Origin: Nitrosopumilaceae archaeon
GTDB lineage: Archaea; Thermoproteota; Nitrososphaeria; Nitrososphaerales; Nitrosopumilaceae
Length of the DNA stretch: 64,000 nt
Direction: 5' to 3'
NCBI GenBank assembly: GCA_965214835.1
Contig: CBDCCK010000002.1
Location: forward strand, 1,344,001 to 1,408,000
Shown: one piece after another, positions 5,213 to 63,986 of the stretch
How positions within the stretch are numbered: the first letter of the stretch is position 1
Layout of the letters: every line of letters begins with the position of its first letter
The notes under the pieces: model-generated
Databases searched by the model: none
Seen by the model: the letters and a program-made list of their open reading frames with translations, nothing else
Told to the model about the DNA's origin: nothing
Translations under genes and position numbers: made by a program

Positions 5213-6760
5213 ATGCATTCAGAAAAGATCGACGTCTATTCCAACAAAAAGAAAACCGCCTTGCAGGGGGGCGGACAGGATCGCATCGCCGCACAGCACG
5301 GCAAGGGCAAGCTGACCGCCCGAGAGAGGATCTCCATCCTGCTAGACGAGGGGACCTTTACCGAGGTTGATCCCCTGACAACCCACCACTATCACGAGTA
5401 TGACATGCAGAAGAAAAAGTTCTTCGGGGACGGCGTCGTGGGCGGATACGGCAGGATAAACGGCCGACAGGCCTTCGTTTTTGCATATGATTTTACGGTC
5501 CTAGGAGGCACCCTCAGCCAGATGGGGGCCAGGAAAATCACAAAGCTGATGGATCACGCAGTGAGGACCGGCTGCCCGATTGTCGGCATCATGGACTCGG
5601 GGGGCGCGAGAATCCAGGAGGGAATCATGAGCCTCGACGGGTTTGCAGACATCTTTTACCACAACCAGCTTGCATCCGGCGTAATCCCGCAGATCACCGC
5701 AAGTATAGGGCCCTCGGCAGGCGGCTCGGTATACTCTCCTGCAATGACTGACTTTATCGTGATGGTGGACAAGGCCGCAACGATGTTTGTCACCGGACCC
5801 GACGTCGTAAAGACCGTGCTAGGCGAGGAGATTACCGCAGACGAGCTGGGCGGCGCGGTATCCCACGGCTCCAGGAGCGGCGTTGCCCACTTTGTGGCCC
5901 AAAACGAGTACGAGTGCATGGATTACATCAAAAAACTGCTCTCGTTTATCCCACAGAACAACACCCAGCAGGCCCCTGCCGTAAGGACAGACGACGATCC
6001 CAACCGCCTGGACAACCGGCTCATCGACATCATCCCCGAGAATCCGCTGCATCCGTACGACATGCACGAGATAGTCAGCTCGATCGTCGACAACCACGAG
6101 TTCTTTGAGATACACGAACTGTTTGCACAGAACATCATAGTGGGATATGCAAGGATGGACGGCCAGACAGTCGGCATCGTCGCAAACCAGCCCTCGGCGC
6201 TAGCAGGCGCCCTGGACATAGACTCCTCGAACAAGGCTGCACGCTTTATCAGGTTCTGCGACTCGTTTAACATTCCGATTGTAACGCTTGTAGACACCCC
6301 CGGCTACATGCCCGGCTCCCACCAGGAGCACAACGGCATAATCAGGCACGGAAGCAAGCTCCTCTACGCATACTGCGAGGCGACGGTCCCAAAGATTACG
6401 ATCGTAGTCGGCAAGGCCTATGGGGGCGCATACATTGCAATGGGCAGCAAGAACCTGAGGACCGATGTCAACTATGCGTGGCCTACTGCGCGCTGTGCCG
6501 TGCTCGGCGCCGAGGCCGCAGTCAAAATCATGAGCAGGAAGGATCTTGCACGCGCAGACGACCCCGAGGCGCTAAAAAAGCGGCTGACTGACGAGTTTGC
6601 CGAAAAGTTCGACAACCCGTATGTCGCCGCATCCCACGGGACCGTGGACAACGTAATTGATCCGGCAGAGACCCGGCCCATGATAATCAAGGCCCTGCAC
6701 ATGCTCAAAAACAAGCGTGACAGGCAGCTTCCCCGAAAGCACGGAAACATAAACCTGTGA
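5213..6760 (+). CDS. pccB: acetyl-/propionyl-CoA carboxylase, carboxyltransferase subunit (3HP/4HB cycle)
   Basis: GKLTARERI, DSGGARIQEG, KAYGGAY, KHGNI. Confidence 0.95.
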   Translation: MHSEKIDVYSNKKKTALQGGGQDRIAAQHGKGKLTARERISILLDEGTFTEVDPLTTHHYHEYDMQKKKFFGDGVVGGYGRINGRQAFVFAYDFTVLGGTLSQMGARKITKLMDHAVRTGCPIVGIMDSGGARIQEGIMSLDGFADIFYHNQLASGVIPQITASIGPSAGGSVYSPAMTDFIVMVDKAATMFVTGPDVVKTVLGEEITADELGGAVSHGSRSGVAHFVAQNEYECMDYIKKLLSFIPQNNTQQAPAVRTDDDPNRLDNRLIDIIPENPLHPYDMHEIVSSIVDNHEFFEIHELFAQNIIVGYARMDGQTVGIVANQPSALAGALDIDSSNKAARFIRFCDSFNIPIVTLVDTPGYMPGSHQEHNGIIRHGSKLLYAYCEATVPKITIVVGKAYGGAYIAMGSKNLRTDVNYAWPTARCAVLGAEAAVKIMSRKDLARADDPEALKKRLTDEFAEKFDNPYVAASHGTVDNVIDPAETRPMIIKALHMLKNKRDRQLPRKHGNINL

Positions 6761-6766
6761 TGAGGC

Positions 6767-8251
6767 ATGATAGGCAAGGTACTCATCGCAAACAGGGGGG
6801 AGATAGCACTCAGGGTGATCAGGACGTGCCAGGCGCTTGGAATCAAGACCGTCGCAGTCTACTCGGACGAGGACTATGGTTCACTGCACGTCAAAAAGGC
6901 GACCGAGGCATACCATATAGGCGGGGCGGCCCCCGCAGAGTCCTACCTGAACCAGGAGAAGATCCTCGAGGTAATGCTGTCATCCGGCGCCGATGCCGTG
7001 CATCCCGGCTATGGGTTCCTCTCAGAGAACGACGACTTTGCGCGGCTGTGCGAGAAAAACGGCATCAACTTCATAGGGCCCACCGCGGACTCGATGAACC
7101 TTTGCGGCGACAAGATGCGCTGCAAGGCCGCAATGCTCAAGGCCGACGTCCCTACGGTACCTGGCAGTCCGGGGATAGTGGATACTGCCGAGGGGGCCGA
7201 AAGGGTCGCAAACGAGATAGGCTATCCCGTGCTCCTAAAGTCCGTCTATGGCGGGGGGGGCCGCGGAATCAGGCTGGTCACAAATGATCAGGAGCTGCGG
7301 GAGGGCTTTGCGACGGTGACATCAGAGTCGATATCTGCGGTCGGCAAGTCCGCAATCATAGTGGAAAAGTTCCTTGAAAAGACAAGGCACATAGAGTACC
7401 AGATGTGCAGGGATCACCACGGCAACGCGGTGCACCTCTTTGAGCGAGAGTGCTCCATCCAGAGGAGAAACCAGAAGCTCATAGAGCAGACGCCGTCCCC
7501 CGTCGTGGATGCGGCAAAGAGGGCCGAGATAGGCGAGCTGGTAGTCAGGGCAGCCGAGGCAGTCGACTATACCAACCTGGGCACCGCCGAGTTTCTGAGG
7601 GCCGACTCTGGGGAGTTTTACTTTATCGAGATCAACGCACGGCTGCAGGTGGAGCACCCGATATCTGAGATGGTATCTGGGCTGGACTTTGTAAGGCTCC
7701 AGCTGGACATTGCAAACGGCGAGCCGCTGCCCTTCAAGCAGGGCGATCTGAGGATGAACGGGTACGCCATAGAGTGCAGGATAAACGCAGAGGACACCTT
7801 CCTCGACTTTGCGCCCTCGACGGGGCCCGTACCCGCAGTTACGATTCCGTCAGGGCCAAACGTCCGGTGTGACACATACCTGTATCCGGGATGCACGGTC
7901 TCGCCGTTTTATGACTCCCTGATGGCAAAGCTGTGCACCTGGGGGCCGACCTTTGAGGAGGCCCGCACCCGCATGCTGGCAGCCCTGGGGGACTTTTACA
8001 TCGAGGGCGTCGAGACGTCGATTCCGCTCTACAAGACCATACTGGAGACCGACGAGTACAAAAACGGCCTGCTGTCAACTGACTTTTTGAAGCGATACGG
8101 CATAATCGACAGGCTGGCAGAGGACATAAAGTCCGATCAAAGGGAAAGGCAGGCGGCAGCCCTGGCGGCTGCGATAATGTACAGCGAGTACCTCAAGAGC
8201 AGGGTGACCTCCGGCCCCGACGACGACCACCGGTGGAGGAGCGGACTGTAG
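6767..8251 (+). CDS. accC: acetyl-/propionyl-CoA carboxylase, biotin carboxylase subunit
   Basis: LIANRGEIA, HPGYGFLSEN, GGGGRG, ERECSIQRR, NARLQVEH. Confidence 0.95.
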   Translation: MIGKVLIANRGEIALRVIRTCQALGIKTVAVYSDEDYGSLHVKKATEAYHIGGAAPAESYLNQEKILEVMLSSGADAVHPGYGFLSENDDFARLCEKNGINFIGPTADSMNLCGDKMRCKAAMLKADVPTVPGSPGIVDTAEGAERVANEIGYPVLLKSVYGGGGRGIRLVTNDQELREGFATVTSESISAVGKSAIIVEKFLEKTRHIEYQMCRDHHGNAVHLFERECSIQRRNQKLIEQTPSPVVDAAKRAEIGELVVRAAEAVDYTNLGTAEFLRADSGEFYFIEINARLQVEHPISEMVSGLDFVRLQLDIANGEPLPFKQGDLRMNGYAIECRINAEDTFLDFAPSTGPVPAVTIPSGPNVRCDTYLYPGCTVSPFYDSLMAKLCTWGPTFEEARTRMLAALGDFYIEGVETSIPLYKTILETDEYKNGLLSTDFLKRYGIIDRLAEDIKSDQRERQAAALAAAIMYSEYLKSRVTSGPDDDHRWRSGL

Positions 8252-45541: not shown

Positions 45542-46642
45542 ACCATGTTGTTTGAAGAGCTGGACATAAAATCATTTTATGATTCTAGAAAGACGGATGT
45601 GTATAATGAATTCTTTAATGCAGTCCTTCCACATTCGAAATACTATAGGAGATTCGGCGGTGTTTTTTCTGCAAAAAGGTTTGCATTAATGGCCGAAGGA
45701 TTACAGGATTTTATCAAGGAAAACAACGGAACTATGGAGCTTGTCATAATACCAATGTTTTCTGAGGAGGACAGGCATGCAATCATGCGCGGTATTGATG
45801 TTCACGACATCATTGCAAAAAACTGGATCAATGATCTTTCAAAAATCAAAGAGAAGTTTCTGGAGGATCATAAAAAAGCATTATCTTGGATGATTGCGAA
45901 TGAATTTCTTACCATAAAATTGATTCTGCCAGAACATGATGATGGAACTATATTTTCCGAGTCGGAAATAAAAGATCAGGCAATATTTAGAAAAGAGATT
46001 GGTATATTGTATAACAAAGACGATGACAGGCCAATCTCTTTTCATGGAACCATAGATAGGGAAGACTCCCAGGTGGGTGAGCTTTACTCAATAGACGTAG
46101 CTAGACACTGGGTTGAAAGTGAGAACGAACAAATTGATTCAGATCATGAGGAATTCACAAACTTTTGGAGCAATGAATCACACCAGCTTGGCTCGATAAA
46201 GTACAAAGTTGTGCCACTATCAAAAAAACTAAACTCGTATTTCAGGCAGATCTCCCCTAAAACCAAGTCCGATATACCTCAACTGAGAAAGCTTCCTGTT
46301 CTAAGAGACTATCAAGAGCAGGCAGCAAAGACGTGGATGAATAGCTCTGGAAAAGGCATTCTTGAGATGGCAACTGGGACGGGCAAGACATTTACTGCAA
46401 TCGAATGTATTAACAAGATAGCAGCCAAAGACGATAAAGCTCTTGTTGTAATCACGGTTCCCTATAGAAATCTTGCAGATCAATGGAAAAAGGAACTATC
46501 CAAATGGGGCATAACATCAACCATTCTTGAATCTAGATCATGGAAGCAGATACTACGTGACGAGGTTTCATACATCAACAAATGATCTGGACCCCGTATT
46601 TTCGAACCACTTTTTGGGCGTTTTTGCGTAGCTCTGGCATCA

Positions 46643-47479
46643 TCATTTGCCTGCCTCCCTTTGGTGCCGTACGACGAACTCCATCGGAGTGAGATATCCA
46701 AGTGAGGAGTGTATTCTGTCATGGTTATAGTCCCTAAATGCCTCCCTTATGACGTCTGAGGCGTCCTGGAAGGAGTCAAATTCATGGGGCCACAGGTATT
46801 CCCTCTTGATGCTTCCGTGAAACGACTCTATGTGGCCGTTTTGTTCTGGCGTCCTGTATGCTATGAGCTCGTGTCTTATTCCCAGCTGTTTCAGGGACTC
46901 CCTGAACATGCGCGACGTATACTGAGAACCGTTGTCTGTCCGCAGGGTCAGCATGCTGCAGTCCGGATCTGCTGCCGATACCGCATCGAGTACGGCCTGA
47001 ACCGCATTCTCCTTTTGCGCCGTGGTATCAAAGGAGTATGCAAGCCACCTGCGCGAAAAGGCATCAAGTACGTTGAAACAGTAGCACCAGCCGTCCCCGC
47101 CGCAGTCCACGTATGTGATGTCTGCCTGCCACAGCCGGTTGGGGGCATCTGGCCTTGTAAGCTTGCGCGAGGCCCGTATTATGTCGTTTTTGGTCTTTTT
47201 GGGCTCGATCCAGCCTATCTGGCGGTAGATTCGCTGTATCTTTTTGCGGTTTACGCGCACGCCAGTCTCGCGCAATATCTGGTTTGCCATCCTCCGGGTT
47301 CCGTACGTCGGCCTTTTCTTGCCTATGGTACGTATGATTGAGACCGTCCCGGGGTCGGCTTTTCTGGCTCGTCTGTCGGCGTCCTTCCTGGCGTAATACC
47401 AGGTGCCCTTTGAGACGCCGCAGTATTCCAGGGCTGTATTGAGGCTCATCTTCTGGTGGCAGATCTGTACGGCATTCAT
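46643..47479 (-). CDS. IS3 OrfB (DDE integrase core)
   Basis: YGTRR, WQADIT, TDNGSQY, NGHIESF, RIHSSLGY; A8 run at 47499-47506 is a candidate -1 frameshift site. Confidence 0.93.
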   Translation of the reverse strand: MNAVQICHQKMSLNTALEYCGVSKGTWYYARKDADRRARKADPGTVSIIRTIGKKRPTYGTRRMANQILRETGVRVNRKKIQRIYRQIGWIEPKKTKNDIIRASRKLTRPDAPNRLWQADITYVDCGGDGWCYCFNVLDAFSRRWLAYSFDTTAQKENAVQAVLDAVSAADPDCSMLTLRTDNGSQYTSRMFRESLKQLGIRHELIAYRTPEQNGHIESFHGSIKREYLWPHEFDSFQDASDVIREAFRDYNHDRIHSSLGYLTPMEFVVRHQREAGK

Positions 47480-47763
47480 CCTTTGCTCAGCTCCATTGTT
47501 TTTTTTAAAGCGTCACAGGCCACTGCATACTCGCCTATGATGCGTTTGAGATTCTGGTTCTCCTTTTGCAGGGCAGCCGCTGCCTTGTCATTCCGGCCCA
47601 GGATGGATGCCTTGCCGCCCTCGACGAACCTGTCCATCCACCTGCCAAACGTGGTGGGCGCGATGTTGTGCTTGCGGCACAGCTCGGCAGTGCTGATGCT
47701 GGTCTTGATGGACTCCATCACTATGTCTGTTTTTTCGGCCAATGTGAACTTTTGTTTTTTCAT
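47476..47763 (-). CDS. IS3 OrfA (helix-turn-helix + leucine zipper)
   Basis: AELCRKHNI...W, LQKENQNLKRII; ATGA overlap with orfB. Confidence 0.9.
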   Translation of the reverse strand: MKKQKFTLAEKTDIVMESIKTSISTAELCRKHNIAPTTFGRWMDRFVEGGKASILGRNDKAAAALQKENQNLKRIIGEYAVACDALKKTMELSKG

Positions 47764-48954
47764 GCCCCGTATGCCCTCCTGTCACATACAAATTCTACGC
47801 ATTTGGGTGGTTCGAATTTTATGGGGTCCTCACCACAAATTTGAAGGTGAAAAAATATCTGTGGCTATTGTTTCACATGATTTATTTTCAAATGATTACT
47901 TTGTCAAACAGATAAAACGTTGTAAGATTACTACAATGCTGGTTGCAGATGAAGCACACCACTTGGGCACCGCCATCGCGCGTAATGGGCTTCTAGAGGA
48001 CTATGTCTACAGGTTAGCGCTTTCGGCCACAATTGAGAGATATTTTGATCAGGACGGAACGGATTTTCTGCGTGAATACTTTAAGGGATCGACTGGAGTG
48101 TCAAGTGTTGCGTCTTACCCACTTGAAAAAGCAATAAAGGAAGACAAGTTGTGTGGATACAACTACTATCCGTTTTTCACAGATTTGACAGAAGATGAAT
48201 ACCATGAATACAGGTCTATCACACATAAAGCAGCTAGGTTGTTAAGTTCAACCGATTTTGAAAAACGGAAGAAGGGCGAGGGGCTCATCAAGATGCGTGC
48301 AAAAATCATAAGAGATGCAACCAACAAGCCCGCAGTTCTTGAGAAAATATTAGCGCAGATGCCTAAAATTAAACATCTACTGATATTCTGTTCTGAGAAA
48401 CAGTACGATACTGTCGAGAAAATCCTGAGCAATTCATCAAAACACAGGAAGGATAACAGAACAACCATGTTCAGGAAAATTACTTATGACAATCCAAAAC
48501 TAAAAAAAGACAGAGTGAAAATTCTTGATGGTTTTGCTAATGAAGACTGGGATGTATTGCTATCTAACCGCGTGTTAGATGAAGGGATGGACATTCCACA
48601 AGCGCGAAGCTGTATTGTCATGGCATCTACTGGAAACCCAACCCAATTTATTCAAAGGCGTGGCCGCGTGTTACGCCCATACAGCGAGCCATACTTGGAT
48701 GGAAGCAGAAAAACACATGCAGACATTTATGACATATTGATCAAACCGCAAATTGACAAGTTTGCCGATCGGGATTCAATCCGGCTTGAGATCAGCATGA
48801 TTCGGAATCAGTTCTCAAGAATAAAAAACATGAGTGAGCTTGCCCTGAATAAGCCACACTGTATGAACGAGATTAAAAAATTTACCTACGGGCTGCCGGC
48901 AGAGTGTTTTTCAGCTACTAATAAATAACTACAACCATTCACGTGTGACACAGC

Positions 48955-58351: not shown

Positions 58352-59666
58352 TTATGACGTTTTTGTTTTTCTGGCCCACTCATTCAACTCTGTTATTACT
58401 GTGTTACGGTAGTTTGTTGCAGGGTTTTCGTGGGATGTTAGCATGTACTCCCCCCACAGGTTGCCGCTGCCTTTTAACACATCGCGTATTGATGAGCTGC
58501 CTCTTTTGTTTTCTGTGTCATATACATATCCCGCATAGGTTGAGTCAGGCTCCAGCCAAGTTATCTGCATATCCGGAATGAACTGTGGCAGGTTTTTGAC
58601 AATGTTCATGCTTGCATCATGGGCTATGCGTCCCAGCATAGAATCGATCACGATAAAATGATTTTTTTCCGCAATGTCACGCATGGCTACAATGCATGAC
58701 ACGGCAAGGCAGTATGTGAGCCCTGCACCGAGCACCGATGGCGGCCTTCCGGGATCCGAGGGACTCTCTGGATCGCATACTGTCACGGTACAGTCTGATC
58801 CGATCTCTACCTTGGAAAAGGGATTATGTGGTGTCAGTCGCAGAAAATACTCGGTGGTTTTGTCAGCAACTGTATTCCTGAACCTCTCTAGCAGGGCATC
58901 CCTGTGCTGACCGAGTATTTTTTCGATGGTTCTTGCCAACGCACTTATGTTGTGACGTGATTGCGACTCTGTTTTTAGATCCATGTCTTTGAGTAGTTCG
59001 TCACGTGTTTCTCTGATGTGTCTTATGGCATCTCCAACAACTGAAAGGCCGGATATCTTTTCCATTCCGACTCTTATCTTGTTTTTGCCATCTGAATCAA
59101 AGAAGGAGCCCAGCAACTCATCGTCAACGAGAAAATACCATGACATGTACTCTGGGAGCACGTCCAGTATGGCATCACAGGCACAAGGCAATTCTGTGCA
59201 CACATCCCATTTGGCAGATTGTTTTGTCCTACGGACAAACTCCAGAGCAGGTGTAATTTCAATGCCTGCAGGCAGGATGCCTCCCACATCGTCCCGGCGA
59301 ACAAGCCGTGAAGATTCCTGCCTCTTGATAAAATGCACCCTGCGTTTTATTGCATATAGCGGCTCGTCCCCCTCGTAAAGATGGACCTCTACAGACGTCT
59401 CGTCCTCATCGCCAGGATTCAGTGACTGCAGCACGTCGCGGTTGATGATGCACATGTCACGAGGGTTTTTCTCAGATCTGAACTTCCCATAAAGGCACCA
59501 GTAAACGGCATCCAATATTGTGGTCTTGCCCCTTCCGTGGGCGCCCGTGATTACCGTAATCGTTTTTTGCGAATCCACGGATAATTCAACTGCAGCAGTG
59601 TCCTTGTATATTCCATAGTTTTTCAGCATGATTTTTCCTAGGCGCACGCCTGTGTTAGGAACCATG
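58352..59666 (-). CDS. short PbeC/DndD-like ABC ATPase with reduced coiled coil (start approximate)
   Basis: LKNYGIY, GAHGRGKT, AVYWCLYG, FLVDDE, IVIDS; aligns by eye with both head halves of 49172-51271. Confidence 0.72.
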
Positions 59667-59861
59667 TTTGTTGCAGAACTCCTGTATGTCTTCATTACCG
59701 GCATGTCTTGTGAGAATTTTGCCCAGATTGGTTTTGTAGTTTTTGCCGTCTGCCAGATCCATCTGTTCCTCTGCCTTGAGAACCTCCTTTAGTATGTCCT
59801 TTATCCTGTCTGGGGCATCGTAGGCATCTATCTCTTTCAGAATGAGATCATTAACGGGCAC
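59655..59861 (-). CDS. PbeB-like small protein, second copy
   Basis: GTG start; MPVNDLILKEI...LKEVLKAE...IQEFC resembles 48955-49185; overlaps the ATPase start. Confidence 0.6.
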   Translation of the reverse strand: MPVNDLILKEIDAYDAPDRIKDILKEVLKAEEQMDLADGKNYKTNLGKILTRHAGNEDIQEFCNKHGS

Positions 59862-60747: not shown

Positions 60748-60864
60748 CAGTCTTCCCAGAAGTACGTGATTCATGACTGTGCAGATGGCAGTGGGCGAAT
60801 CTGCAGGCATCACAATTTGATTTGTTTCAAATCCGGGGCCGTTTTTGGGCTACTGGGAAGACTG
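60748..60864. mobile_element. 117-bp CAG...CTG MITE with 4-bp TSD
   Basis: CAGTCTTCCCAG/CTGGGAAGACTG; GGGA on both sides. Confidence 0.75.
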
Positions 60865-61082
60865 GGGACGGTCATGCCGGCACACATCCTGAATGCGCGG
60901 GGACTGACAATCTAGCAAGTAATTTCATGGATTACGTACGCCTTGCCTGCATTTGGATCGGGTTGGCGTACATTATGTGCCCATTTGATCAAAATTTGCT
61001 AATTTCGAATCAACTCTCAGGGATCGTCGCGTGTCGGTTAGGTGTTGAGAAACCTCAGACAGAGTCGCCGGAGCCCCAGGGA

Positions 61083-61179
61083 AACATGGACAGGGATCGT
61101 CGCGTGTTGGCTAGACTGAGGCGCAAGGGCTGGTCCGTGCTGCGCTTTTGGGAGCATGACATCATGGGCAATCCTGACA
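61083..61179 (+). pseudogene. Vsr-like endonuclease C-terminal fragment
   Basis: NMDRDRRVLARLRRKGWSVLRFWEHDI. Confidence 0.7.
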
Positions 61180-61289
61180 GTAAGAGCTCACCCCCTCCAG
61201 AAAATACGACGTGGTAGGCACGGTGATCAAGGCTCCGACCAGCAGAGTCGCCTGAGGGGTAAACTCTTACGACTGCATAGGGTCTATAA

Positions 61290-61297
61290 TTTATATG
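61290..61297 (+). promoter_or_regulatory. probable TATA box of the Ubl operon
   Basis: TTTATATG ending 24 nt before TTG 61321. Confidence 0.5.
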
Positions 61298-61320
61298 ACA
61301 GCGCAAGAGTTCTGGTTACG

Positions 61321-61584
61321 TTGTATGATAAATCAGATTTTGCAATTACGTTTGTAATACAAGGTAAAGAGTTTGCGATTATAGTCATGCCGGATGAAAT
61401 TATAAAAAATGCTGTAAAAAAAGCACAGGAAAAATCTGGCAATAAAGACAAGCCGGACGATTTGAAGGTTAGAACGGAAGAAGGCAAAATACTCGATCAG
61501 AACAAGAGTTTTAGCGATCAAGGAATCACAAACCCAACAAAACTATTTCTTGATAAAGGTCCGGGCCGCGGTGGAAGAAGATAG
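61321..61584 (+). CDS. bilA: ubiquitin-like protein (DUF2604/BilA-like), pro-form ending GG-RR
   Basis: ITFVIQG...RTEEGKILDQNKSFSDQGI...KLFL..GPGRGGRR, beta-grasp pattern. Confidence 0.8.
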   Translation: MYDKSDFAITFVIQGKEFAIIVMPDEIIKNAVKKAQEKSGNKDKPDDLKVRTEEGKILDQNKSFSDQGITNPTKLFLDKGPGRGGRR

Positions 61585-62012
61585 CGATTTTAGAACCAAA
61601 GGTATCCAGAATAAAATTCACCAAGGCCGTCCAAGAGCTAGAATCTGTACAAAAGACCTATGAGGAAATTTGGAGAGTGCGATATGCGCAATACCCAACA
61701 ATACTGTTAGATGTTCTTTTTGCACGAGGAATCACGCTTTTACTGAATCTGGAAAATTGGGATTTCCTTCCTCCACAAGCTACCTTGATCAGTACGGATC
61801 TGCAAAGTAAGACAACACGGTCGCCCGGACACCACATCGTCCTCAATAAAAACACAGGCCGATTGTGGTTTTGCAGTCCGGGATTCTCTGAGTATCATAC
61901 GCATTACCCGGAAGACAGGTGGGATCTCATAAGGGGGACTTATCTAGGAAGCATAACGGGCATAGTAAAACAGGCATGCAATATGATTGGCAGGACAAAT
62001 CGTAATGAATGA
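61581..62012 (+). CDS. bilB: E2-like CEHH-domain protein (BilB-like), probable ATA start
   Basis: EPKVSRIKF, NWDFLPP, WFCSPGFSEYHTH..DRW. Confidence 0.75.
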   Translation: MAILEPKVSRIKFTKAVQELESVQKTYEEIWRVRYAQYPTILLDVLFARGITLLLNLENWDFLPPQATLISTDLQSKTTRSPGHHIVLNKNTGRLWFCSPGFSEYHTHYPEDRWDLIRGTYLGSITGIVKQACNMIGRTNRNE

Positions 62013-62484
62013 TGCGAGCCTTGCTAAAGTTTCACGGATAAAAATTCCAAGACAGGTCATAAACGAAACCTTTGATTTTTTGCAAAAACACGGTGACAAA
62101 CATGTGGAATCTCACGCGCTGTTGGTTGGAAAAGAAGCGGCGAGGGTGTTCAGCGTGTCTGCCGTATGGTTTCCAAAACAACGCGGGACATCTTGCTCCT
62201 ATGAAGTGCCGGAGGAGGAAGTGTTTCAAATTAACAAACGGCTAAACCTAGAGAGAAAAACGGCAATCTGTCAGGTACACACACATCCCTGCGGTGCGTT
62301 CCACAGCGGCATAGATGATGATGGATCGGCATTAATGTTGCCGGGATCTGTCAGCATCGTGATACCGAATTTCGGGTTTGTTCCACGCGAAGAACTAAAT
62401 CGGTGGGAGGTGTACAGGCTTGAGGACGGCATATGGCAGCACGTATCAGAGCGGGAGGTGAAACGCTTATTTCGCGTCACGTGA
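62005..62484 (+). CDS. bilC: JAB/JAMM peptidase (BilC-like)
   Basis: N-terminal Glu (VES) and QVHTHP....HSGIDD; SIVIPNF. Confidence 0.88.
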   Translation: MNDASLAKVSRIKIPRQVINETFDFLQKHGDKHVESHALLVGKEAARVFSVSAVWFPKQRGTSCSYEVPEEEVFQINKRLNLERKTAICQVHTHPCGAFHSGIDDDGSALMLPGSVSIVIPNFGFVPREELNRWEVYRLEDGIWQHVSEREVKRLFRVT

Positions 62485-63986
62485 CACCCAATGAAGAAGG
62501 CATAGTTCAAAAGAACATTACGGCAATGTCGATGATATCCAAATATGAGTCTGCCAGCATTAGATCGCTGCTAGACTCGTTTAAAGTCAGGGTGGTACTC
62601 TCAGAAAACGACACGAATGAGAATTATGAATGTGCGTGCAATGTCACATTAAACCTCCTTACAAGGTTTTTAAATTCGGTACATTATGCAGGTCCGAAAA
62701 GCATTCTAAGAATGCCGCCGTCTTGCAGGTCAAAGATTCGCTGTGACGACGCGAATGGTGACGACGCGTCCATGCACCTGATATTTGGAAATCACAAACC
62801 AATGCCTAATTCGTTGTATGTTTCGTCCTCTGGCTGGAGCGTTTACCTGTCTCAGGACAGTCCGTGCGGTTGGAAGCCCTTGGTCATAAACCGCCTGGCA
62901 GCAGCGTATGCTGGAGGACTGGCGGTGGGGGAGGTTTTAAAGAATGTCTTGGATGATGCCCCATCTGAAAAAATAGATCGGTTCGAATATGACTTGGTTA
63001 CACACGGCAGGTCGGTGCAGCCCGTTACGAAACCTCCGGTTCCAAAAATCCTGGATCTTGGTGATTTGACGATTGTGGGTTGTGGGGCAATAGGACAGGC
63101 ACTGTGTTTTGGTTTGGAATCCATTACGTCTCTTGCAGGAAGGATGACCCTGATCGATCATGATATGTTGGAGACCTCAAATGAGCAGAGATACGTCCTG
63201 GCGTTCCCAGAGAACCGGAGGGAAAACAAGGCATTGCATATGTGCAAATTCTTGGCCCGCAACAACCCCCTCCTGAACTTGGTTGGGGTTCCAATGAGCT
63301 ATGAGGATCACGCAAATGCCGTCAATATGCCCGTAGGAAGCAGAGCCACGGTGGCTGTGGACAACATTCTTACCAGATTGAACGTGCAGGCGGGATTGCC
63401 AAGAGTACTCTGGAACGCATGGACAGACGTGTCTGACGCAGGGTTGAGATACGGGATTGGCAGGCATGCTCTAGATGACAGGTACGAATGCATCTGGTGT
63501 GCCTATTTTCCCACAGGTAAGCAACCTACGGAAATGGAAATGAATTCAATGCTGACGGGGTTTTCACATAAGGAGATACAACGGAAGCTTGATCAGGGTG
63601 AAAAGTGCACTAGCAAGGATTTGAAACGAATTCACAAACATACTAGCATCCCAATGAACATATTGATCAAAAACAAGAACCGCCCGTTTGCGGACGTGCT
63701 ACACGGGGAGTGCGGCGTATATGCGCTAGGGAATCGAGGAAATGACGCCACAGCCCCTGTGCCACATGTGCCGTTTCTTGCTGGGGTGTTCCTCGCATCC
63801 CAAATCGTACTGGAATCACTACAGCCGTCACCGTCGCAGGCAAGTCCCACCCATCATTATTCCAGCGTGGATTTCGACGGCATGGGGTTTCCAAGACCCG
63901 ATTGCGCGGTAAAAAAACTGAGAAATCCAAAATGCCTATGCAATGATCAAGACTACAAAGACGCCTATGCCGAAAGATGGAACTGA
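62481..63986 (+). CDS. bilD: E1-like ThiF protein with N-terminal extra domain (BilD-like)
   Basis: GCGAIG, DHD, SNEQR, VDN, CIWC, GECG, C-terminal CLC; GTGA overlap with the JAB gene. Confidence 0.87.
   Translation: MTPNEEGIVQKNITAMSMISKYESASIRSLLDSFKVRVVLSENDTNENYECACNVTLNLLTRFLNSVHYAGPKSILRMPPSCRSKIRCDDANGDDASMHLIFGNHKPMPNSLYVSSSGWSVYLSQDSPCGWKPLVINRLAAAYAGGLAVGEVLKNVLDDAPSEKIDRFEYDLVTHGRSVQPVTKPPVPKILDLGDLTIVGCGAIGQALCFGLESITSLAGRMTLIDHDMLETSNEQRYVLAFPENRRENKALHMCKFLARNNPLLNLVGVPMSYEDHANAVNMPVGSRATVAVDNILTRLNVQAGLPRVLWNAWTDVSDAGLRYGIGRHALDDRYECIWCAYFPTGKQPTEMEMNSMLTGFSHKEIQRKLDQGEKCTSKDLKRIHKHTSIPMNILIKNKNRPFADVLHGECGVYALGNRGNDATAPVPHVPFLAGVFLASQIVLESLQPSPSQASPTHHYSSVDFDGMGFPRPDCAVKKLRNPKCLCNDQDYKDAYAERWN

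Follow-up and report, generated by a model that had tools for sequence, protein, structure and literature searches.

A type II BilABCD-like operon in a defence island of an ammonia-oxidising archaeon, predicted from sequence and structure models

Bil, the clearest prokaryotic counterpart of eukaryotic ubiquitination, has been studied only in bacteria, and its two described types are the closest known relatives of a four-gene operon lying at the end of a 64,000-nucleotide stretch of a Nitrosopumilaceae archaeon (assembly GCA_965214835.1, contig CBDCCK010000002.1, positions 1,344,001 to 1,408,000 of the forward strand; hereafter, the window). In the available part of the preprint by Chambers et al. 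(10.1101/2023.09.26.559546), the CEHH protein is recognised as a diverged conjugating enzyme (E2), and the CEHH/6C operons, ordered ubiquitin-like protein (Ubl), CEHH/E2, deubiquitinase (DUB) and activating enzyme (E1), are renamed type II BilABCD; 162 such operons are counted there, mostly in Rhizobiaceae. The same text reports that the Ensifer aridi enzymes form an E1-E2-Ubl complex, that the DUB trims the Ubl tail and that the Ubl is conjugated to lysines, the targets in Escherichia coli being non-specific cellular proteins and the Ubl itself, and it argues that complete ubiquitination arose in bacteria. Two further preprints (10.1101/2022.05.11.491447; 10.1101/2023.09.04.556158), in the portions available, credit type I Bil with phage defence and with tagging a tail fibre protein of a phage. 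No description of an archaeal Bil operon was found in the literature on Bil, CEHH and DUF2604, on Asgard defence and on ammonia-oxidising archaea, a search that did not extend to supplementary operon tables, and the word "archaea" does not occur in the preprint by Hor et al. (10.1101/2023.09.04.556158). A first interpretation of this DNA, made from its letters alone (hereafter, the sequence-only reading), knew of no characterised archaeal example; this holds for characterised systems, but a 2024 survey preprint (10.1101/2024.10.26.620412) lists, in its available part, ISG15-like systems in one archaeal taxon.

Gene order and protein families of the operon

By its sequence, the operon belongs to a known kind of system, type II Bil. 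The reading that we consider probable is that it is an archaeal type II BilABCD (CEHH/6C), an E3-less minimal ubiquitination pathway with an E1-E2-Ubl mechanism assigned by homology, and likely antiviral; its biochemical steps, target and antiviral role are taken from homology with E. aridi and from genomic context. Four overlapping genes on the + strand, in the order Ubl, CEHH/E2, JAB DUB, multidomain E1, were found where the sequence-only reading had placed them (Table 1), and the match to bacterial Bil that it drew is with the type II order in particular. The same order is annotated on the Sinorhizobium fredii plasmid pNGR234a as DUF2604, putative metal-binding protein, Mov34 and "E2 ligase fold family C protein". 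The E2 and JAB genes overlap by 8 nucleotides (ATG...TGA), and the JAB and E1 genes by 4 (GTGA) or 52, according to whether the E1 starts at GTG 62481, which overlaps the JAB stop and is the more likely, or at ATG 62433; the Ubl and E2 genes overlap by 4 (ATAG) if ATA 61581 is the E2 start. No further co-directional gene follows the E1, the next gene being a PemK/MazF-type toxin on the opposite strand, no E3-like gene is found in or beside the operon, and no CapH/CapP-type regulator was seen. With the type II BilABCD of E. aridi TW10 (structures 8TYX-8TZ0) and of S. fredii pNGR234a, the operon shares its four genes and their order, a DUF2604 Ubl, an E2 with Cys-x5-Glu-x-His, the JAMM spacing H-x-H-x6-S-x2-D, an E1 with N-terminal and adenylation domains, CxxC/CxC zinc ligands and a catalytic Cys column, the lack of an E3 and a defence-island setting. 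Three of the four proteins find their best PDB sequence match among the E. aridi type II Bil proteins.

The Ubl is a single beta-grasp domain of Pfam DUF2604 (E 9.4e-12; 45.6 bits against a cut-off of 25) ending KGPGRGG-RR, and so has the form of a type II BilA, that is, one DUF2604 domain with a reactive C-terminal Gly and, usually, a short tail. By sequence it matches BilA 8tyx_A in the PDB at E 3.8e-4, with poly-ubiquitin chains ranking higher and single ubiquitins matching weakly, and, with the N-terminus placed at TTG 61321, its length agrees with that of the homologue in another Nitrosopumilaceae genome, G338. Among the archaeal Ubls of the clade described below, the C-terminus is G-(P/A)-G-R-G-G followed by 0-6 residues; the tails after GG in the seven distinct members are RR (here), ITNP, none, Q, FTNSKD, none and none. 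The beta-grasp protein ending PGRGG-RR is thus confirmed, but the obligatory maturation by JAB that had been predicted from its two terminal residues fails as a rule for the clade, three of the seven Ubls stopping exactly at GG.

The JAMM peptidase carries the BilC active site in full (E35, H92-x-H94, S101, D104). Its best PDB match by sequence is BilC 8tyx_B, over the full length at E 3.9e-13, with E35 aligned to the mutated E33; PADLOC BilC matches at E 9.4e-14 and Pfam Prok-JAB at 25.6 bits. The E1 has the motifs G216-x-G218-x-x-G221, C353-x2-C356, C501-x-C503 and G-E-C427-G (Cys427 codon 63711-63713), and its best PDB match is BilD 8tyz_A (E 1.2e-34, residues 88-516 on 80-506), with C427 on the column of BilD C417; PADLOC BilD matches at E 1.1e-12 and Pfam ThiF at 37 bits. 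Nine residues of the ATP-binding, zinc and catalytic-Cys sites (G216, G218, R253, D310, C353, C356, C427, C501 and C503) are invariant in 47 E1 relatives, and the GECG cysteine, put forward from the start as the catalytic candidate, is well placed for that role by alignment and conservation. Judged by sequence, the arrangement is that of BilD, with an N-terminal domain, an active adenylation domain and an insert bearing the putative catalytic Cys, and the "N-terminal extra domain" noted earlier corresponds to the region of the inactive adenylation domain of BilD. A fused E2 in that position, as in CBASS Cap2, was considered and rejected, since the PADLOC E1-E2 models match only ~207-329, which is the adenylation core, while BilD aligns from residue 45/88.

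The E2 carries the motif C98-x5-E104-Y-H106-T-H108, numbered from ATA 61581 (Cys98 codon 61872-61874). All 21 relatives have C98, E104 and H106, which line up with the C, E and H of BilB and of the S. fredii CEHH protein; H108 is not conserved in the family, and the "EYHxH" motif of the sequence-only reading therefore stands for its Cys, Glu and first His but not for its last. A phmmer search of the PDB with the single sequence gave nothing meaningful. The profile of the 21 relatives, in turn, has one significant PDB match, BilB 8tyz_C, at E 1.8e-4 and nearly end to end, and hhalign relates the family to the S. fredii pNGR234a protein at 94% probability. With the AlphaFold2 (AF2) model as query, Foldseek places the BilB chains 8tz0_C and 8tyz_C at the top (E ~2e-4, TM ~0.6), with many canonical UBC/UEV proteins ranking after them, in keeping with the UBC fold predicted for the CEHH protein. 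The E2 thus appears to combine the UBC-like fold of BilB with the catalytic Cys, the Glu and the first His of CEHH.

Other described systems fit less well. Type I BilABCD, from Collimonas and others, has the same order, and the PADLOC BilC and BilD matches recall it, but its BilA is made up of a fused pair of ubiquitin-like domains, whereas the Ubl here has one (87 aa), and matches to the PADLOC BilA and BilB models are missing. Among archaeal systems, those of SAMP/UbaA and the Caldiarchaeum/Asgard-type operons likewise join a beta-grasp modifier with C-terminal Gly-Gly to a ThiF-type E1 and a JAMM peptidase. We know of no E2 in the SAMP system; here, an E2-fold gene is present and the NCBIfam SAMP-activating E1 (NF047750) reaches 16.5 bits against a cut-off of 450, which is not the picture of a UbaA-type E1 acting without an E2. 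In the Caldiarchaeum-type operon of Nunoura et al., a RING E3 reportedly accompanies a canonical UBC E2; the operon here, which has no E3-like gene, differs in this. Both separations, from SAMPylation and from E3-containing archaeal operons, had been made in the sequence-only reading, and both stand.

By analogy with the E. aridi system, the JAMM peptidase would remove the two C-terminal Arg of the Ubl and expose Gly-Gly, the adenylation domain of the E1 would adenylate the terminal Gly, and the Ubl would then be held as a thioester on Cys427. From there it would move to Cys98 of the CEHH-type E2, docked on the E1 through the N-terminal segment of the E2, which would link it to lysines of target proteins; the JAMM peptidase may also undo the conjugation.

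A rare archaeal branch

What is new is the lineage, which on the sequence data is a distinct and rare archaeal branch of type II Bil. In samples of each group that include the starting genome, the CEHH profile detects the gene in 5 of 401 genomes of the host's family, in 7 of 401 of its class, spread over three families, and in 2 of 301 of the phylum of an Asgard metagenome-assembled genome (MAG). Complete four-gene loci in the same order were found in three Nitrosopumilaceae genomes (G394, G338 and G070), a Nitrososphaera MAG, the Asgard MAG and a groundwater metagenome locus. A scan of JGI/ENA metagenomes with the E2 alignment yielded just three loci, two of them identical; tblastn against plasmids gave 12 records, all from Sinorhizobium, Rhizobium or Mesorhizobium and with ~25% identity (E1); and 28 pattern matches from IMG/VR, scanned with the E1 alignment, included no relative. 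A profile search of 1.84 billion representatives returned 2,463 proteins at E up to 1e-3, 827 at 1e-10 and 276 at 1e-30. Copies of archaeal Bil are likely to be under-counted in surveys, because half of the genes escape the current PADLOC and Pfam models.

The E1 phylogeny (FastTree, 150 rows) was built from 141 of 150 listed representatives, nine outside 460-600 aa having been dropped, and nine locus sequences; its midpoint root serves for drawing only. All six identified archaeal E1s, from this genome, the three Nitrosopumilaceae genomes, the Nitrososphaera MAG and the Promethearchaeota (Asgard) MAG, fall in one 17-row clade with support 99. That clade lies within a 38-row group on a branch 0.73 long with support 100, which stands apart from a 108-row group containing S. 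fredii and Saccharothrix; most rows, including a 20-row sister group, carry no taxon name. The sole "bacterial" row in the clade comes from a 2.7-kb contig (31% G+C) binned to an Alphaproteobacteria MAG, and is sister to a "Cenarchaeum symbiont" sequence (G070, 34% G+C), and its binning is doubtful. Unlike the rhizobial type II systems, then, this one has an archaeal host and a separate, long and well-supported E1 branch, ~25% identical to the rhizobial plasmid copies, and its Ubls end G-R-G-G where that of S. fredii ends G-V-A-G.

Some features are confined to single loci. The two E2s from the Asgard phylum (L028 2971-3579, L036 1327-1956) have in common an extra N-terminal extension of ~60 residues that the Nitrososphaeria copies do not have. 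The Asgard and Nitrososphaera loci each have a small open reading frame (ORF) just upstream of Bil (L028 1736-2014, +; L029 1975-2289, -), in which a GIY-YIG-like motif, GVY...G.T.NL..R..EH, was read by eye.

The E2 start codon and competing readings

Several findings weigh against the operon being a working type II Bil system. The PADLOC BilA and BilB models gave no match at E up to 1, so the PADLOC check that had been proposed supports BilC and BilD but not the other two, and neither Pfam family typical of type II is above its cut-off. Metal_CEHH (PF14455) reaches 22.5 bits on the E2, below the cut-off of 25 (relative P0007, 35.7 bits; S. fredii protein, 327 bits), and Prok-E2_C (PF14459), which scores 258 bits on S. 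fredii, leaves the N-terminal domain of the archaeal E1 undetected, giving 13 bits in P0039 and nothing here. The AF2 model of the E2 is only of moderate confidence (pLDDT 73, pTM 0.71). At the fourth CEHH position, for which the available text of Chambers et al. (10.1101/2023.09.26.559546) describes E. aridi H151 as highly conserved in types I and II and possibly catalytic, the archaeal family has, unlike rhizobial type II, a nearly invariant Tyr109, a placement made by alignment in two independent ways (HMMER and hhalign). The archaeal E2 has 143-160 residues against 204-205 in rhizobial type II because its central loop, proposed in the same text as a target-recognition element, is much shorter than in E. 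aridi and S. fredii, and the loop is 12 residues shorter still in this genome and in a 91%-identical metagenome relative. The model of the E1-E2 complex scored 0.65 against 0.00 for the best control (58 of 80 solved complexes attain the tool's mark, as do 2 of 110 mismatched pairs), but three runs gave 0.65, 0.01 and 0.75, one thus failing, with partner pLDDT of 40-75 and between-run agreement of at least 0%; moreover, the pass may reflect likeness and not binding, because a like complex, 8TYZ, has already been solved. Finally, the available portions of the type I and type II Bil preprints yielded no report of phage defence by type II, and the antiviral character that had been attached to the Bil match therefore holds for type I but not, on those texts, for type II.

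A further difficulty is the start of the E2. Its ORF has no in-frame ATG, GTG or TTG before GTG 61677, 32 codons into the conserved protein, and an E2 begun there would lose residues 1-32 and with them most of the predicted E1 contact, which in the complex model is made largely by E2 residues 1-8, 11, 12 and 15. The E2 homologues begin M-(V/A)-E-L-P-I-L-E-P..., and that of G394 starts at a GTG within the GRGG codons of the Ubl, in the +1 frame. Here the body of the E2 is in the +2 frame, with 4 extra nucleotides relative to G394, and the homologous GTG (61571-61573) is out of frame. The operon had been described as complete and the system as intact; this is right for all four coding frames and for the catalytic motifs, but not for the translation of the E2, which has no canonical start at the homologous N-terminus.

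The operon could accordingly be a decaying remnant, in which loss of the E2 start codon silences or cripples the E2 and no conjugation takes place. There is precedent in its surroundings. Two other systems of the island, PbeA and PDC-S68, are each split by transposase genes, from which we conclude that the island is being eroded by insertion sequence (IS) elements. Moreover, the only other carrier in the genus, congener G003, has a decayed locus (L013, ~5580-7800 of G003:C1:634001-648000; 66% G+C) with an E1 match in three frames, an E2 match limited to model positions 75-154, without the N-terminal half, and a JAB gene that looks intact; the Ubl motif was not found in this remnant. We nonetheless regard decay, the main rival reading, as unlikely for the operon described here. 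An ATA at the homologous place, with no canonical start, is shared by three of the eight distinct loci with a complete 5' region (this genome, G338 and the groundwater metagenome locus), a count that excludes L033 (G581, a weak CEHH match at E 2.7e-11), L034 and L039 (contig ends) and the truncated G003. In all three, the ATA lies 0-2 nucleotides from the Ubl stop, which it overlaps here (ATAG), and the E2 frame is full-length and open. Identity to homologues is 44-64% over the 32 codons that precede GTG 61677 and 55-59% over the remainder, and the catalytic motifs of the other three genes are intact. The junction also recurs in independent data. A contig from a run of another study spans 61208-61693 with 4 substitutions and no indel, which argues against an assembly artefact, and contigs of a diverged related strain from that work keep all frames open with no indel in any gene, although 64 substitutions occur over the 1,623 nucleotides of the E1 piece; the Ubl/E2 junction is identical in them. 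A further run, which covers 19 of 30 bins at low depth, was left out of this comparison.

Since the junction has been kept, the 32 upstream codons are as conserved as the rest, the predicted E1 contact lies in them and the operon's remaining junctions are overlaps of the classic kind, those codons appear still to be coding. We think that E2 translation probably begins at AUA 61581, coupled to termination of the Ubl gene, and consider this more likely than decay. A programmed -1 frameshift fusing Ubl and E2 was set aside because no X-XXY-YYZ slippery site could be read before the stop in the three ATA-type loci and because such a shift would abolish the GG end. If real, the arrangement would be a case of non-canonical initiation coupled to termination in archaea, and it would tie E2 output strictly to synthesis of the Ubl.

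If the operon does function as an archaeal type II Bil, its role is most likely defence against archaeal viruses by the tagging of a viral protein, probably a structural one, given its patchy distribution and its place in a defence island. A functional but non-antiviral system, modifying host proteins for regulation, proteostasis or stress as is thought for SAMPs and the Caldiarchaeum-type system, would suit the non-specific conjugation seen in the available account of the E. aridi enzymes, the lack of a type II antiviral test in the accessible parts of the Bil preprints, and the lack of a virus link or of any relative encoded on an IMG/VR viral contig. The low counts in the class and the family are ill suited to housekeeping, however, and the operon is surrounded by defence genes here, adjoins a type I restriction-modification system in G070 and is flanked by transposases in both G394 and G070; we think such a role very improbable. 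That the Ubl and E1 are merely a sulfur carrier pair of the ThiS/MoaD type, with no protein conjugation, is hardly credible. The E1 does match Pfam ThiF and NCBIfam MoeB weakly, the latter with 22-23 bits where the cut-offs are 266-376, but every NCBIfam model for a sulfur carrier or a SAMP E1 scores far below its cut-off; the closest structural relatives are BilD and BilA, an extra N-terminal domain and a Cys427-bearing insert are common to the E1 and BilD, and the operon also encodes an E2-fold protein and a JAMM peptidase.

Read as an archaeal type II Bil, the operon offers a first clue as to how viruses might be tagged by ammonia-oxidising archaea, and its compact E2, which lacks the loop proposed for target recognition as well as the conserved His, would put the function of those features to the test. 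The distinct archaeal branch is also material for rooting the Bil family, and if the clade roots outside bacterial type II, this would bear on whether complete ubiquitination originated in bacteria or was shared early. A bolder and rather speculative view, to which we give little credence, is that archaea, ammonia oxidisers and Asgard alike, hold an old E3-less ubiquitination lineage of their own, with a ubiquitin-similar, RGG-ended Ubl, a compact Cys/Tyr E2 and, in several members, an AUA-only E2 start at the Ubl stop.

The host and the surrounding island

The host genome (3.2 Mb, 2 contigs) encodes archaeal AmoA (384 bits), which makes it an ammonia-oxidising archaeon, as had been supposed, and the defence island inferred in the sequence-only reading is evident in the Pbe, Lamassu, PDC-S68 and AbiU genes that lie around the operon (Table 1).

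Table 1. Features of the operon and its surroundings (window coordinates unless a locus is named)
Feature	Position	Strand	Remarks
A/T-rich TATA-box-like stretch, putative archaeal promoter	61283..61296	+	Read by eye; ~25-35 nt upstream of TTG 61321
bilA-like Ubl gene	61321..61584	+	87 aa from TTG; TAG 61582-61584; frame open from 61120
bilB-like CEHH-type E2 gene	61581..62012	+	143 aa if ATA 61581 is the start; frame open from 61557
bilC-like JAB/JAMM metallopeptidase gene	62005..62484	+	159 aa
bilD-like E1 gene	62433..63986	+	517 aa from ATG 62433; 501 aa from GTG 62481
HNH/type IV restriction-like gene	In window, upstream of operon		
PbeA helicase	45545-48928		Upstream of operon; interrupted by an rve-family IS on the opposite strand (46643-47479), giving two ORFs
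PbeC	In window, upstream of operon		
Two co-directional ORFs, 170 and 715 aa	51271-53927		Directly after PbeC; no Pfam/PADLOC match
Lamassu LmuA (Cap4 nuclease)-LmuC-LmuB set	In window, upstream of operon		
Truncated PbeC/DndD-like ATPase gene	58352-59704	-	450 aa; upstream of operon
PemK/MazF toxin	Downstream, beyond window end		
PDC-S68	Downstream, beyond window end		Split by an IS4-type transposase (L002 10889-12172)
AbiU/AIPR	Downstream, beyond window end		

Some minor observations concern this neighbourhood. The two ORFs that follow PbeC may be unrecognised Pbe partners. In the G003 remnant, an OLD/TOPRIM-like gene, identified by eye, occupies the other strand at the position expected for the Ubl. 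Directly upstream of the TATA-like box here lies a dispersed ~65-nt repeat (61205-61272), perhaps MITE-like or REP-like, with 41 matches of 77-90% identity across the host chromosome; in Logan contigs the bin holding it has a summed depth of ~4,700 against 18.6 for the operon, and many of these contigs break within it, at ~61229 and ~61270. Just upstream of the repeat, the ORF at 60777-61217, probably a gene fragment, ends ...RRVLARLRRKGWSVLRFWEHD, a C-terminus that we take to resemble that of a Vsr/DUF559-type endonuclease. The truncated PbeC/DndD-like gene has a near-identical second copy, also on the - strand (L002 15064-16000, that is, from window position 75064 onward), and the two bracket ~16 kb containing the Bil operon, PemK, a NifS-like gene, PDC-S68 and AbiU; they could be the product of a duplication or delimit a composite mobile segment.

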